DNA of 62,682 nt from a bacterium (GTDB taxonomy: Bacteria > Patescibacteriota > Microgenomatia > UBA1400 > UBA12108), in assembly GCA_021788365.1 (NCBI GenBank), contig JAJYKS010000006.1, forward strand, positions 1 through 62,682, read 5' to 3'. The position numbers were made by a program, and so were the translations under genes. Numbering within the stretch: the stretch's first letter is position 1; each line of letters opens with the position of its first letter. Of the stretch, positions 1,589 through 6,039 are shown one piece after another. A model generated the notes under the pieces. It was not told the origin of the DNA, did no database searches, and worked only from the letters and a program-made list of their open reading frames with translations.

Positions 1589-1652
1589 GCAGAGACCTTC
1601 TAACATCTACATAAAAGGCCACTTCATTTGACACCCGTGTATAATGGCTCCA

Positions 1653-1697
1653 ATGAAACTCGTAATCCGCATAACCACCACGACTACCATCCGCTAA
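1653..1697 (+). CDS. Thr-rich attenuator leader peptide MKLVIRITTTTTIR
   Basis: 14-codon ORF with five consecutive Thr codons (1674-1688), 7 nt after TATAAT, followed by mutually exclusive hairpins upstream of thrS. Confidence 0.9.
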   Translation: MKLVIRITTTTTIR

Positions 1698-1747
1698 CGC
1701 GGGGGAGTGTGTTGGATATGCTCACTCCCGCGCCACGCGGGAGTTTT
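1698..1747 (+). terminator. thrS attenuator: antiterminator/terminator pair
   Basis: Terminator ACTCCCGCG-cca-CGCGGGAGT-TTT (1724-1747); its 5' arm can alternatively pair with CGCGGGGGAGTG (1698-1709). Confidence 0.88.
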
Positions 1748-1781
1748 AGTATCTACCCATATACGCTAGAATAAGGAACAT

Positions 1782-3581
1782 ATGCAAAAACAAAAACAAG
1801 AAAGTCTAATACCAGATCTCCATCCGCTGCGCCACAGCGCGGAACACGTTCTCCACCAGGCGATGAAGGAACTCTATCCTTCGATACACCTGGCAATGGG
1901 CCCAGCAACAGACGAAGGCTTCTACTTTGACTTCGACGGCAAAGTCGATGGCAAGAGTGAGGTGGTTATCTCCGAGGCCGATTTCCCGAAAATCGAGAAA
2001 CGCATGGCAGAAATCATTAAAAAGGATCTCCCAATTACCAGATACGAAGTTTCTGAAAAAGAAGCTCGTAAACTCTTTGCCGACAACCCGTACAAACAGG
2101 AGTGGATCGACAAAGCCGTACAAGAGGGTAAAAACATCTCGATCTACTGGACCGGAGAACCAGAGAAACCGGGATCCATGGTGGACCTCTGCAAGGGCCC
2201 TCACGTCGAAAGCACGGGGAAGATAAAAGCGTTTAAGCTCCTCTCCGTGGCCGGTGCCTACTGGCACGGAGATGAGAAGAACAAAATGCTGACCCGTATC
2301 TATGGCACAGCCTTCTTCTCACAACAGGAGCTCGAGGAGCACTTGAAACGGCTAGAAGATGCCAAACTTCACGACCACCGTAAGCTTGGGCGTGATCTCA
2401 ACTTATTCGTTTTCTCCGATCTCGTTGGTAAAGGTCTTCCCATGCTCACGCCATACGGAACAACGATTCGTCGAGAGCTCGAACGATTTGTCGTCGACGA
2501 AGAGATACGACGTGGCTATCAGCACGTTATGACCCCGTCCCTCGCTAAGGTCGACCTCTACCGAACGAGTGGTCACTACCCATACTACAAAGACACTATG
2601 TATCCCCCAATGGTAGTCGACGAAGACGAGCTCATCTTGCGCCCGATGACCTGTCCGCATCACTTCCAGATGTACGTGAGCAGACCGAGGAGCTATCGGG
2701 AGCTTCCCATCCGCTACGCGGAGTTGGCAGACTTATTCCGATATGAGAAGAGTGGCGAGCTATCTGGGCTCATGCGTGTTCGCACGTTCTGCCTGGCAGA
2801 CGCCCACATTATCTGCACCAAGGAGCAAGCGGTGGGGGAGATAAACGCAGTTCTCGACCTCATCGAGTTCGTAAACAACACGCTCGGCATGAAAAAAGGT
2901 GTGGACTATCGCTATCGTCTCTCCTTGGGTGATCGCAGTGACACCAAAAAATATTACAAAGACGATTCCTCCTGGGATTACGCCGAAGGAGTACTACGAA
3001 GTGTCGTACAGTCGCGCGACGTTCCCTATTACGAAGCCGAAAACGAGGCCGCATTTTACGGCCCCAAAATCGATGTGCAGGTAAAAAATGTCGCCGGAAA
3101 AGAAGAGACTGCCTTTACCTGCCAATACGACTTCGTCATGCCTAAGCGCTTCAAGCTACGTTTTACCAATGCAGAAGGAGCAGAAGAAGAACCCATAGTG
3201 GTTCACCGGAGCAGCATCGGCGCATTCGAACGGACTATGGCATTTCTCATCGAGAAATACGCAGGGGCATTCCCGCTCTGGCTCTCGCCTGTACAGGTAA
3301 AGCTCGCCACTGTCTCAGAAAAAGAGCTGGGCGCTGCAGAAAAGGTAAAAACTGCTCTTAGTAGGGAAGGAATACGAGTGGAGCTCGATGATAGCAATCG
3401 TACGCTCGGGAAAAAGTCATCCGACGCACGAAGCGAAAAGGTTCCGTATTTTGCCATCGTAGGTGCAAAAGAGGCAGAGAACGGCACCGTCACGCTCAAG
3501 AATAGAGCGGGCGAACAGGTAGTACTCACCATAGACGAAGCAGTTGCCAAACTCAAGCAGGAAATAGTAAGCAAACAATAG
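1782..3581 (+). CDS. thrS: Threonyl-tRNA synthetase (lacks N-terminal TGS domain)
   Basis: HSAEH editing motif, DLCKGPHV, RPMTCPHH, AAFYGPKID, class II core and anticodon domain. Confidence 0.99.
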   Translation: MQKQKQESLIPDLHPLRHSAEHVLHQAMKELYPSIHLAMGPATDEGFYFDFDGKVDGKSEVVISEADFPKIEKRMAEIIKKDLPITRYEVSEKEARKLFADNPYKQEWIDKAVQEGKNISIYWTGEPEKPGSMVDLCKGPHVESTGKIKAFKLLSVAGAYWHGDEKNKMLTRIYGTAFFSQQELEEHLKRLEDAKLHDHRKLGRDLNLFVFSDLVGKGLPMLTPYGTTIRRELERFVVDEEIRRGYQHVMTPSLAKVDLYRTSGHYPYYKDTMYPPMVVDEDELILRPMTCPHHFQMYVSRPRSYRELPIRYAELADLFRYEKSGELSGLMRVRTFCLADAHIICTKEQAVGEINAVLDLIEFVNNTLGMKKGVDYRYRLSLGDRSDTKKYYKDDSSWDYAEGVLRSVVQSRDVPYYEAENEAAFYGPKIDVQVKNVAGKEETAFTCQYDFVMPKRFKLRFTNAEGAEEEPIVVHRSSIGAFERTMAFLIEKYAGAFPLWLSPVQVKLATVSEKELGAAEKVKTALSREGIRVELDDSNRTLGKKSSDARSEKVPYFAIVGAKEAENGTVTLKNRAGEQVVLTIDEAVAKLKQEIVSKQ

Positions 3582-3592
3582 TTACCAGATCA

Positions 3593-3626
3593 CATACCAG
3601 GTATGCAATATTGCATACCTGGTATG
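3593..3626. repeat. Perfect 34-bp palindrome
   Basis: CATACCAGGTATGCAAT/ATTGCATACCTGGTATG; a half-unit recurs at 61726-61749. Confidence 0.85.
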
Positions 3627-3670
3627 AAATTACATCACTAATAATCAAGAAATCCGCTATAATAAGCAAC

Positions 3671-4186
3671 ATGAAGTTTTACGCCATCAACCAATTTGTA
3701 AAAGGAACCGAGCTCCGTGTCGTGGACGAAACTGGCAAACAAATAGGCGTTATGAGCAAAACCGACGCCTTGGTTGAGGCCCAAAATCGCAATTTGGATC
3801 TAGTCGAAATCGCGCCTCTTGCCAAGCCTCCAGTTGCCAAGATTATAGATTTCAAGAAATTTAAGTATCTCGAGGCAAAAAAAGAGCGAGAGGGTCGCGC
3901 CAAAAGCGGCAAAGTAGAGCTTAAGGAAATCCGATTTACTCCATTTATTGCCACTGGTGATTTTGAGTCACGTGTAGGCCGCATGAAGGATATACTTGAG
4001 GATGGCGACCGAGTAAAGATTGTGGTAAAATTCACCGGTCGTCAAATCACGCACCCAGAGTTCGGACACGATCTTGTAAAAAAGATCCTGTCTTCACTTG
4101 AGGGAACAGCGGTTGCCGACGGAGTCGCAAAACTCCAAGGAAAGCAGTTGTTCTTGGTATTAAATCCGACCAAGAAGGCAAAATAA
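3671..4186 (+). CDS. infC: Translation initiation factor IF-3
   Basis: LRVVDETGKQIG, LDLVEIAP..PPVAKIIDFKKFKY, VELKEIRF; ATG 3671 is 7 nt after TATAAT. Confidence 0.97.
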   Translation: MKFYAINQFVKGTELRVVDETGKQIGVMSKTDALVEAQNRNLDLVEIAPLAKPPVAKIIDFKKFKYLEAKKEREGRAKSGKVELKEIRFTPFIATGDFESRVGRMKDILEDGDRVKIVVKFTGRQITHPEFGHDLVKKILSSLEGTAVADGVAKLQGKQLFLVLNPTKKAK

Positions 4187-4913: not shown

Positions 4914-4958
4914 ATGAGTCACAAAGAAAATTTATTTTTCTTTTTTACCACCAGCTAA
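4914..4958 (+). CDS. Phe-rich attenuator leader peptide MSHKENLFFFFTTS (pheM-like)
   Basis: 14-codon ORF with four consecutive Phe codons (4935-4946) upstream of pheST attenuator hairpins. Confidence 0.9.
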   Translation: MSHKENLFFFFTTS

Positions 4959-4959
4959 A

Positions 4960-5006
4960 CGCGGGGAGGTAAACGTGCCTACCACCCCGCGGGAGCGGGG
5001 TTTTTT
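4960..5006 (+). terminator. pheST attenuator: antiterminator/terminator pair
   Basis: Terminator ACCCCGC-ggga-GCGGGGT-TTTTT (4984-5006); antiterminator GCGGGGAGGTA (4961-71)/TACCACCCCGC (4980-90); 1:2 pairing TTTACC (4944-49)/GGTAAA (4968-73). Confidence 0.88.
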
Positions 5007-5034
5007 GTGAGCACAAGATGTTACAATGAAACCT

Positions 5035-6039
5035 ATGCAAAACAAGATTGATACAATTAAAAATACCTTCATCGCAGACCTGGTTGCAGCAGCAACGCTC
5101 GAAGCTCTAGAAGCGATCCGAATAAAGTACCTCGGCAAATCGAAAGGGGAGACAACGCTTCTCCTCAAGGAATTACAATCGCTCTCACTCGACGATAAAA
5201 AGCACTATGGCCCCCTCCTCAACCAACTAAAGCACTATCAAGAGTCAGAACTAGAAAATAAATATAAAATACTAAATAGCGAAATAAAAAATGAAACAGA
5301 CCTCACTATTCCCGGCACTCCCCGTCCAGTCGGCCACCTACACCCCACCTCAGTTGTCATCCGAGAAATGAACGAATTCTTCCGCTACCACGGTTTCTCC
5401 ATAGGAGAAGGGCCTGAAATTGAAAATGCTGACTACAATTTCCGACGCTTAAATTTGCCGGAAGGGCATCCTGCGACAGATCTCCAGGACACACTCTTTA
5501 TCAAAGAGCCAGATATACTGCTGCGCACACACACCTCATCGGTAGAAACGCGCATACTTTCGGCGTACCACGACAAGCTACCCCTACGAGTCGTAGTCCC
5601 CGGCAAGTGCTACCGCAACGAGACAGGCAATGCCACCAACAATAGCTTCTTCTACCAATATCAAGGATTCGTTGTAGACAAGGGGATCACCATCCAGCAT
5701 CTAAAAGACGTCCTCACCAAATTCCACCAATTCTTGTTCGGCAAAGATGTAGTGCTACGCTTCCGCTACAAATACTACCCCGAGGTTTCTCCCGGTATGG
5801 GCGTCGACATGCAGTGCCAATTCTGCAAAGGGGTGGGGTGCGGCGTGTGTAAATATCGCGGCTATATCGAGGTTTTGGGGAGCGGCATGATCCACTACAA
5901 CACGCTTCTAGCTTGTGGTATCGATCCTGACATCTACACCGGTTTCGCCTGGGGCATGGGTTTAGACCGCCTCGTCATGAGTAAATTCGGTATCACTGAT
6001 ATTAGGAAACTTTATAGCGGAGATATCGTCTACCTATGA
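5035..6039 (+). CDS. pheS: Phenylalanyl-tRNA synthetase alpha subunit
   Basis: GHLHP, HPATDLQDT, LLRTHTSS, PGKCYRN, GFAWGMGLDRL; start 5035 (5026 alternative). Confidence 0.99.
   Translation: MQNKIDTIKNTFIADLVAAATLEALEAIRIKYLGKSKGETTLLLKELQSLSLDDKKHYGPLLNQLKHYQESELENKYKILNSEIKNETDLTIPGTPRPVGHLHPTSVVIREMNEFFRYHGFSIGEGPEIENADYNFRRLNLPEGHPATDLQDTLFIKEPDILLRTHTSSVETRILSAYHDKLPLRVVVPGKCYRNETGNATNNSFFYQYQGFVVDKGITIQHLKDVLTKFHQFLFGKDVVLRFRYKYYPEVSPGMGVDMQCQFCKGVGCGVCKYRGYIEVLGSGMIHYNTLLACGIDPDIYTGFAWGMGLDRLVMSKFGITDIRKLYSGDIVYL

Follow-up and report, generated by a model that had tools for sequence, protein, structure and literature searches.

The stretch of DNA analysed here (the window; 62,682 nt, contig JAJYKS010000006.1 of assembly GCA_021788365.1, forward strand) carries thrS, the gene for threonine--tRNA ligase (ThrRS). 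Upstream of thrS lies a short leader open reading frame (ORF) with five tandem Thr codons, followed by RNA segments that can form either an antiterminator helix or an intrinsic terminator. We consider this element very likely to be a ribosome-mediated transcription attenuator that senses Thr-tRNA and controls thrS. The reading is supported because the Thr run and the competing stems are conserved in relatives of the organism.

The genome is that of an ultra-small, Microgenomates-type member of the Patescibacteria; the relatives nearest to it by ThrRS carry the labels Gottesman-, Roizman- and Beckwithbacteria. Bacteria of this type are generally regarded as amino-acid auxotrophs. To our knowledge almost nothing is known about gene regulation in the Patescibacteria (candidate phyla radiation), nearly all of which are uncultured. 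Small ORFs of the kind described here are likely left unannotated by gene callers. The element offers a concrete and testable example of how amino-acid supply might be sensed in such reduced cells.

Architecture of the thrS leader

All features of the locus lie on the plus strand. A -10 promoter box TATAAT (1640-1645) is separated by a 7-nt gap (1646-1652) from the ATG (1653-1655) of the leader ORF, which encodes MKLVIRITTTTTIR in 14 codons and ends with the TAA at 1695-1697 (whole ORF 1653-1697). It appears in the ORF listing and has homologous Thr-run upstream ORFs (uORFs) in relatives. The proposed sensing codons ACC ACC ACG ACT ACC occupy 1674-1688, and the tRNA-Thr set of the genome comprises GGU, CGU and two UGU. 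A first-pass annotation of the same DNA had described a TATAAT, 7 nt and then a leader with five tandem Thr codons; this holds, with the ATG one base earlier than a naive count would place it.

Minimum-energy folds divide the leader into four segments. Segment 1 (1669-1694) is the 3' portion of the leader ORF, Thr codons included. Segment 2 (1699-1721; core 1699-1709, GCGGGGGAGUG) has two alternative partners, segment 1 and segment 3. Segment 3 (1723-1733) provides the 3' arm of the antiterminator helix and overlaps the entire 5' arm of the terminator. The intrinsic terminator (1724-1747) has a 9-bp stem (1724-1732/1736-1744) with 7 G-C pairs, a CCA loop and a short U-run at 1744-1747; the terminator scan gave its tail as TTTAGTATCT. 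Further downstream, a Shine-Dalgarno (SD)-like AGGAAC/AAGGAA at 1774-1779 (sequence aataaggaacatATG) precedes thrS (1782-3581, 599 aa), the proposed regulated gene. Its identity as ThrRS rests on TIGR00418 (615.7 bits against a cut-off of 383.65) and on the Pfam domains tRNA_SAD, tRNA-synt_2b (the class II core) and HGTP_anticodon.

Folding gave -24.7 kcal/mol for the 1:2 hairpin (1669-1694/1699-1721), whose UAAC loop contains the stop codon, -21 to -22 kcal/mol for the 2:3 antiterminator helix (1699-1709/1723-1733) and -16.2 kcal/mol for the 3:4 terminator hairpin. The 133-nt leader as a whole folds with z = -4.08 relative to dinucleotide shuffles, and its ribosome-free fold consists of the 1:2 hairpin plus the terminator. 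The antiterminator helix buries the whole 5' arm of the terminator, so that the two structures are mutually exclusive. The structural claims of the first-pass annotation are all borne out by these folds: it had proposed that segment 2 pairs with the region of the terminator 5' arm, that a 9-bp terminator followed by a U-run (UUUU) uses the same arm, and that a TCCGC/GCGGG pairing joins segments 1 and 2, the last being part of the 1:2 hairpin.

Ribosome positions were modelled by forcing a 28-nt footprint to be single-stranded. With a ribosome at the stop codon, or with none, the leader folded into the terminator, and with a ribosome stalled on Thr codons the antiterminator became the minimum-energy structure. 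On this basis we propose the following mechanism. Transcription would start about 7 nt after the TATAAT, so that the RNA would begin at or beside the AUG at 1653 and be translated without an SD sequence. When Thr-tRNA is plentiful, the ribosome would reach the UAA at 1695-1697 and its footprint would mask the segment 2 core (1699-1709); segments 3 and 4 would then pair, the terminator (1724-1744) with its U-run would form and transcription would end before thrS. If no ribosome is present, segment 1 (1669-1694) would pair with segment 2 and the terminator would form again. When Thr-tRNA is scarce, owing to little threonine or low ThrRS activity, the ribosome would stall on the first Thr codons (1674-1679). 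Such a stall would break helix 1:2 and free segment 2 to pair with segment 3 (1723-1733), the terminator 5' arm would be sequestered, and RNA polymerase would read through to yield more ThrRS.

Conservation, covariation and modelled switching

Loci of thrS were collected from GTDB species genomes, by protein search and retrieval of upstream regions, and from JGI metagenomes. A Thr-uORF was defined by an ATG start, a length of 4-45 codons and at least four Thr within a six-residue span. Such an ORF was present on the thrS strand in 48 of 177 upstream regions and on the antisense strand in 0 of the 177, and the same run test applied to other amino acids found none enriched in more than 5 of these regions. 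A terminator, defined as a G+C-rich hairpin with a U-run, began 21-35 nt past the stop codon (median 28) in 47 of 50 unique Thr-uORFs; the terminators of homologous leaders carry at least 5 T in 8, most of them with 5-7 consecutive U. The leader peptides of relatives have 12-24 residues with 3-8 Thr and vary freely outside the Thr run (for example MKQILLTTTTTTHP, MNNYNITTTTTTNP, MHKKLIATTTTTTIPV and MKLIVNCTTTTSS). Thr codon usage across the leaders was ACC 110, ACT 105, ACA 44 and ACG 3, a third-position variation that we read as a signature of coding constraint.

In the order, the Thr-uORF together with a terminator was present in 41 of the 106 species genomes that could be assessed. By family the counts were 8/16 for the organism's own family (f1), 28/33 for f13, 2/3 for f19 and 0/18 for f15. 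Of 78 genomes representing about 50 other Patescibacteria families, three had a Thr-rich uORF, none of them with a convincing terminator, and 6 of 59 metagenome thrS loci were positive. The element is patchy and lineage-restricted, with essentially none elsewhere in the phylum. A JGI metagenome scan for closer relatives returned no ThrRS above 68% identity.

These comparisons bear on the simplest alternative, a chance juxtaposition in which the hairpin simply terminates the upstream gene and the small ORF has no meaning. The upstream gene (948-1475) does lie on the same strand, but the terminator is located 250 nt past its stop codon with the -10 box in between. Moreover, the pair of Thr-uORF and terminator recurs in the 41 genomes next to different upstream neighbours, often tRNA-Val. 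In the 1.09-Mb genome itself, 14 ATG-initiated ORFs of 6-40 codons have at least four Thr in five residues, and only the leader ORF at 1653-1697, directly 5' of thrS, is followed by a terminator. Chance juxtaposition, to which we assign a negligible probability, is effectively refuted by the comparative data already.

tRNA-Val(GAC) was found immediately 5' of the thrS leader or of thrS in many relatives (L001, L003, L004, L007, L008, L091, L092, L097, L101, L102). The locus in the window has in its place a unique GC-rich, hairpin-rich stretch of 120 nt (within 1476-1640); that this stretch might be a genomic repeat was rejected, as no second copy was found. In the assembly as a whole, which is 95% complete, ARAGORN detected Val(TAC) but no tRNA-Val(GAC).

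Covariation between the segments was assessed without alignment by comparing cognate with non-cognate segment duplexes from 47 leaders in 2000 permutations. The mean energy of the segment 2:segment 3 duplex was -13.8 kcal/mol for cognate against -10.5 kcal/mol for non-cognate combinations, no permutation (0/2000) reached the observed mean, and the cognate duplex had a median rank of 6 of 47. The 1:2 duplex behaved alike (-16.7 against -14.9 kcal/mol; 0/2000). Pair counts were taken from an alignment of nine sequences of the organism's own family; a MAFFT alignment of 28 diverse leaders mis-registered the terminators and was not used for them. In the nine-sequence alignment the antiterminator was 82.5% paired, both sides had changed in 5 of 9 pairs (12 cells), and the covariation score of 0.429 compared with 0.135 after shuffling (0/500), the register outperforming all slid registers. 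Covariation of the terminator helix was weak in this alignment. The first-pass annotation had made its case dependent on the Thr run and the competing stems being conserved, and this check came out in its favour: Thr-run uORFs with a terminator recur in 41 genomes of the order, and the antiterminator covaries.

Masked folding of the 47 leaders gave a terminator probability above 0.8 with the ribosome at the stop codon in 45 leaders. In 38 leaders, a stall on at least one of the Thr codons lowered this probability to below 0.2. When all A-site positions were scanned, the stall positions that abolished the terminator lay 6-9 codons before the stop (median probability below 0.15), overlapping the stretch 4-7 codons ahead of the stop that is richest in Thr codons (frequency 0.74-0.89). 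The chain of events originally proposed, from Thr-tRNA limitation through ribosome stalling and antiterminator formation to induction of ThrRS, gains support from these results, namely the strand- and amino-acid-specific enrichment of Thr, the constrained distance between stop codon and terminator, the covariation and the modelling of the stall window.

Several observations weigh against this reading. The closest relative (ThrRS 74% identical) has no leader, its thrS directly following tRNA-Val, and as half of the organism's own family likewise lacks the leader, the element is dispensable. For the leader in the window, the antiterminator, at -22.0 kcal/mol, has virtually the same energy as a small hairpin at 1705-1723 combined with the terminator (-21.9 kcal/mol). 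The modelled terminator probability of this leader falls from 0.96 to only 0.33-0.5 for stalls at the first two Thr codons, and remains 0.8 or higher when the stall is at the third to fifth. The modelled switch is thus balanced thermodynamically and partial rather than decisive; because the equilibrium model is balanced, a real switch in this leader would have to rest on co-transcriptional kinetics. Its U-run is short, UUUU being followed by AGUAU, and a scan for sigma-70-type promoters at the locus returned no -35/-10 pair at normal spacing. Finally, coupling of transcription and translation in Patescibacteria is an assumption of the attenuator model. A TTGACA at 1628-1633 was considered as a -35 element and rejected, lying only 6 nt from the -10 box.

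The short U-run and the roughly 50:50 balance between terminator and antiterminator would also fit a different output of the same Thr-codon stalling, by way of Rho-dependent termination, the stability of the mRNA or the accessibility of the thrS ribosome-binding site, with the hairpin and U-run acting as a pause or processing site. There is a parallel in Streptomyces, where some leaderless leaders of aminoacyl-tRNA synthetase (aaRS) genes have no clear intrinsic terminator (PMC8079986). Yet in 47 of 50 homologous leaders the hairpin is canonical and G+C-rich, with at least 5 T in 8 behind it, and the terminator is located at least 35 nt upstream of the thrS SD sequence with no predicted pairing to the SD region. 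We regard such an alternative output as unlikely and favour transcription attenuation.

Start and stop signals, and leaders of other synthetases

Across the leaders, a -10-like hexamer was found 4-10 nt (mode 7) before the in-frame ATG in 39 of 47, mostly with 5-6 of 6 matches and often with TG upstream, and an SD-like 4-mer between -18 and -4 in 0 of 47. Because the SD signal is absent from all 47 leaders and the -10 box lies this close to the ATG in 39 of them, the leaders are probably leaderless, and translation from leaderless or near-leaderless transcripts is the most likely interpretation of their sequences. In two relatives (L092, L102), the ATG of the Thr-uORF is located 2-3 nt past the 3' end of tRNA-Val with no -10 box in between; a 5'-AUG on these leaders would need tRNA 3'-end processing of a co-transcript.

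The ends of the leader ORFs also share features. Pro occurs among the last four residues in 34 of 47 leader peptides (such as NP, IPV or HP before the stop), and the stop codon is TAG in 31 of 47. In relatives, CCC of the Pro region pairs with GGG just after the stop, which places the stop codon in a tetra- to hexaloop; the leader in the window has UCCGC/GCGGG in place of this CCC/GGG pairing around the stop. The Pro-stop pattern may have its origin in RNA pairing, in slow termination at Pro-stop or in both.

Leaders with the same architecture precede other synthetase genes of this organism. A genome-wide scan for short ORFs with an amino-acid run and a terminator upstream of a long ORF returned seven candidates, of which four are credible leaders, each before its cognate synthetase gene (thrS, pheS, cysS and leuS). 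The remaining three were set aside: one is a second, overlapping frame at the cysS site, and two resemble the 3' ends of upstream genes, one of these, before lysS, resembling the C-terminus of GreA. The Phe leader uORF found by the scan (MSHKENLFFFFTTS; 4914-4958 of the window, plus strand) is followed by an antiterminator and by a terminator, ACCCCGC-GGGA-GCGGGGT plus T6 (4984-5007, plus strand), just upstream of pheS (5026-6039, plus strand). It gave no match to the Rfam family Phe_leader, and the related locus L017 (4406-4513) scored 49.5 bits against the gathering score of 55. The Cys-rich uORF (MLENVCCCPCEDGGECTC; C14:84120-84176, plus strand, within an element at 84120-84230) begins 6 nt after a -10 box TATTAT; its terminator reads ATCCCC-GGAA-GGGGAT-TTTT, and cysS follows directly (C14:84246-85655, plus strand; TIGR00435, 418 bits). 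The Leu-rich uORF (MTFSRGLSLLLLTT; C7:11742-11786, minus strand) likewise begins 6 nt after a -10 box, TATCAT; its terminator reads GCTCCCC-GCAA-GGGGAGT-TTTT, and leuS lies downstream (C7:9028-11676, minus strand; TIGR00396, 779 bits).

The identity of the codons thus tracks the regulated synthetase and therefore argues against a Thr run that exists only for RNA pairing. Such a run is part of another explanation, by which the uORF would respond to translation stress in general or act as a constitutively leaky insulator and the Thr codons would be incidental, for example as ACC/ACU repeats that pair with GGU/AGU in segment 2. The Thr codons do form the 5' arm of helix 1:2, and RNA pairing (CCC with GGG) also seems to constrain the C-terminal codons, which are often Pro. 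Against it stand the use of Phe codons at pheS, Cys codons at cysS and Leu codons at leuS within one and the same architecture, and the specificity of the Thr enrichment for frame and strand. We judge this explanation very improbable and retain Thr-specific sensing.

Taken further, the four leaders raise the tentative possibility, which we rate at clearly less than even, of an order-wide aaRS regulon of SD-less, leaderless leader peptides (here covering at least thrS, pheS, cysS and leuS) that would occupy the place held by T-boxes in Firmicutes. The same proposal would include a 5'-AUG generated by a -10-only promoter, or in some relatives by tRNA-Val 3'-end processing, and a CCC/GGG mini-hairpin whose loop contains the stop codon (commonly preceded by a C-terminal Pro, 34/47) and which could keep the terminating ribosome on segment 2 for long enough to commit the leader to termination.

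On the 3' side, thrS is followed in the window by infC, rpmI, rplT and pheS. A perfect 34-nt palindrome (CATACCAGGTATGCAAT/ATTGCATACCTGGTATG) occupies 3593-3626, 12 nt past the thrS stop and without a U-run; it could be a terminator-like hairpin or a protein operator. A TATAAT (3658-3663) follows the palindrome, with an ATG 7 nt later at 3671, and judging from this spacing infC may have its own promoter and a leaderless start.

Comparison with known systems

An Rfam scan of 1400-1900 with E-values up to 10 returned only chance-level matches to mir-31_2, PreQ1-III and isrK (E at least 0.29). Neither Thr_leader (RF00506) nor the T-box (RF00230) matched in this interval, and the element measures only about 95 nt. 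Nor did the folds show hairpins of the E. coli thrS operator type: no stable structure is predicted in 1748-1781 beside the SD sequence, and the hairpins lie at least 35 nt upstream. Among 40 thrS loci of relatives without the leader, no T-box reached the gathering score of 93; in E-value mode, 46 loci yielded two sub-threshold T-box matches, L105 3297-3456 (44 bits) and L182 275-458 (30.5 bits). Two other loci (L005, L010) share a conserved structured element that lies about 150 nt before thrS and combines a T-box-like GGAUGGAACC core with a long terminator; it gave no Rfam match.

The matches in L105 and L182 indicate that tRNA-sensing RNA occurs at this locus in relatives, which is an argument for a mechanism based on binding instead of translation. 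Here ThrRS would bind a tRNA-Thr-like operator, or uncharged tRNA-Thr a degenerate T-box, and the uORF would remain untranslated. We consider this extremely improbable: no T-box or other Rfam family is credible at the locus, the 95 nt from AUG to U-run are too short for a T-box, no structure is predicted beside the thrS SD sequence, and ATG, frame and stop are conserved around Thr codons that vary synonymously at the third position. The element does resemble the Firmicutes thrS T-box and the E. coli thrS translational operator in its presumed purpose, a feedback of tRNA-Thr charging or ThrRS level on thrS, but its proposed sensor would be the translating ribosome, whereas uncharged tRNA or the ThrRS protein plays this role in those systems. 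The patchy spread of a leader peptide, a T-box-like element or nothing at thrS illustrates a rapid turnover of sensing systems.

Leaderless leader peptides have been described before aaRS genes of Streptomyces lividans (leuL2-leuS, trpL2-trpS, alaL-alaS and thrL-thrS; PMC8079986), and leaderless poly-Cys uORF attenuators in mycobacteria (bioRxiv 10.1101/834739). Like the Streptomyces leaders, those found here are apparently leaderless short ORFs rich in the cognate amino acid and located before synthetase genes, including thrS. Unlike S. lividans thrL, which has two Thr codons only and no clear terminator (PMC8079986), the element in the window has five tandem Thr codons (3-8 Thr in relatives), a canonical terminator and a covarying antiterminator, and comes from an unrelated phylum. 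In our literature search S. lividans thrL was the only thrS-linked leader found, although an earlier prediction for other phyla may exist, the Russian-language comparative work on aaRS attenuators lying outside the search; no paper combined leader peptides with Patescibacteria or the candidate phyla radiation. Known cases of aaRS genes controlled by leader peptides are E. coli pheM-pheST and those of S. lividans (PMC8079986). Leader-peptide attenuation, aaRS targets and leaderless leaders are all precedented; the novelty lies in the phylum, in the clarity of the thrS case and in the apparent use across aaRS genes. Leader-peptide control of thrS would thereby extend to a new phylum, with features much clearer than in the single Streptomyces report, and about 50 diverse sequences are added for the study of leaderless translation coupled to attenuation.

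The element shares Thr sensing codons and the logic of attenuation with E. coli thrL. The latter controls the threonine biosynthesis genes thrABC, also senses Ile, is longer and has an SD sequence; the present element is analogous to thrL and is not a member of Rfam Thr_leader. By analogy, its closest counterpart is E. coli pheM-pheST, within the logic of the classical attenuators trpL, thrL and hisL. In pheM-pheST a leader-peptide attenuator controls phenylalanyl-tRNA synthetase, reportedly the work of Fayat, Springer and colleagues in the 1980s. Both systems combine a short leader ORF with tandem cognate codons, 1:2, 2:3 and 3:4 alternatives, an intrinsic terminator and an aaRS target, and the gene order thrS-infC-rpmI-rplT-pheS in the window, with the Phe leader between rplT and pheS, matches the E. 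coli pheST neighbourhood. Unlike pheM-pheST, the element described here would regulate ThrRS, has a leader that is without SD and apparently leaderless, shows no detectable sequence homology and resides in a Patescibacteria host. Even so reduced a cell would appear to monitor tRNA charging by means of the ribosome and then to adjust the synthetase, as E. coli does for pheST.

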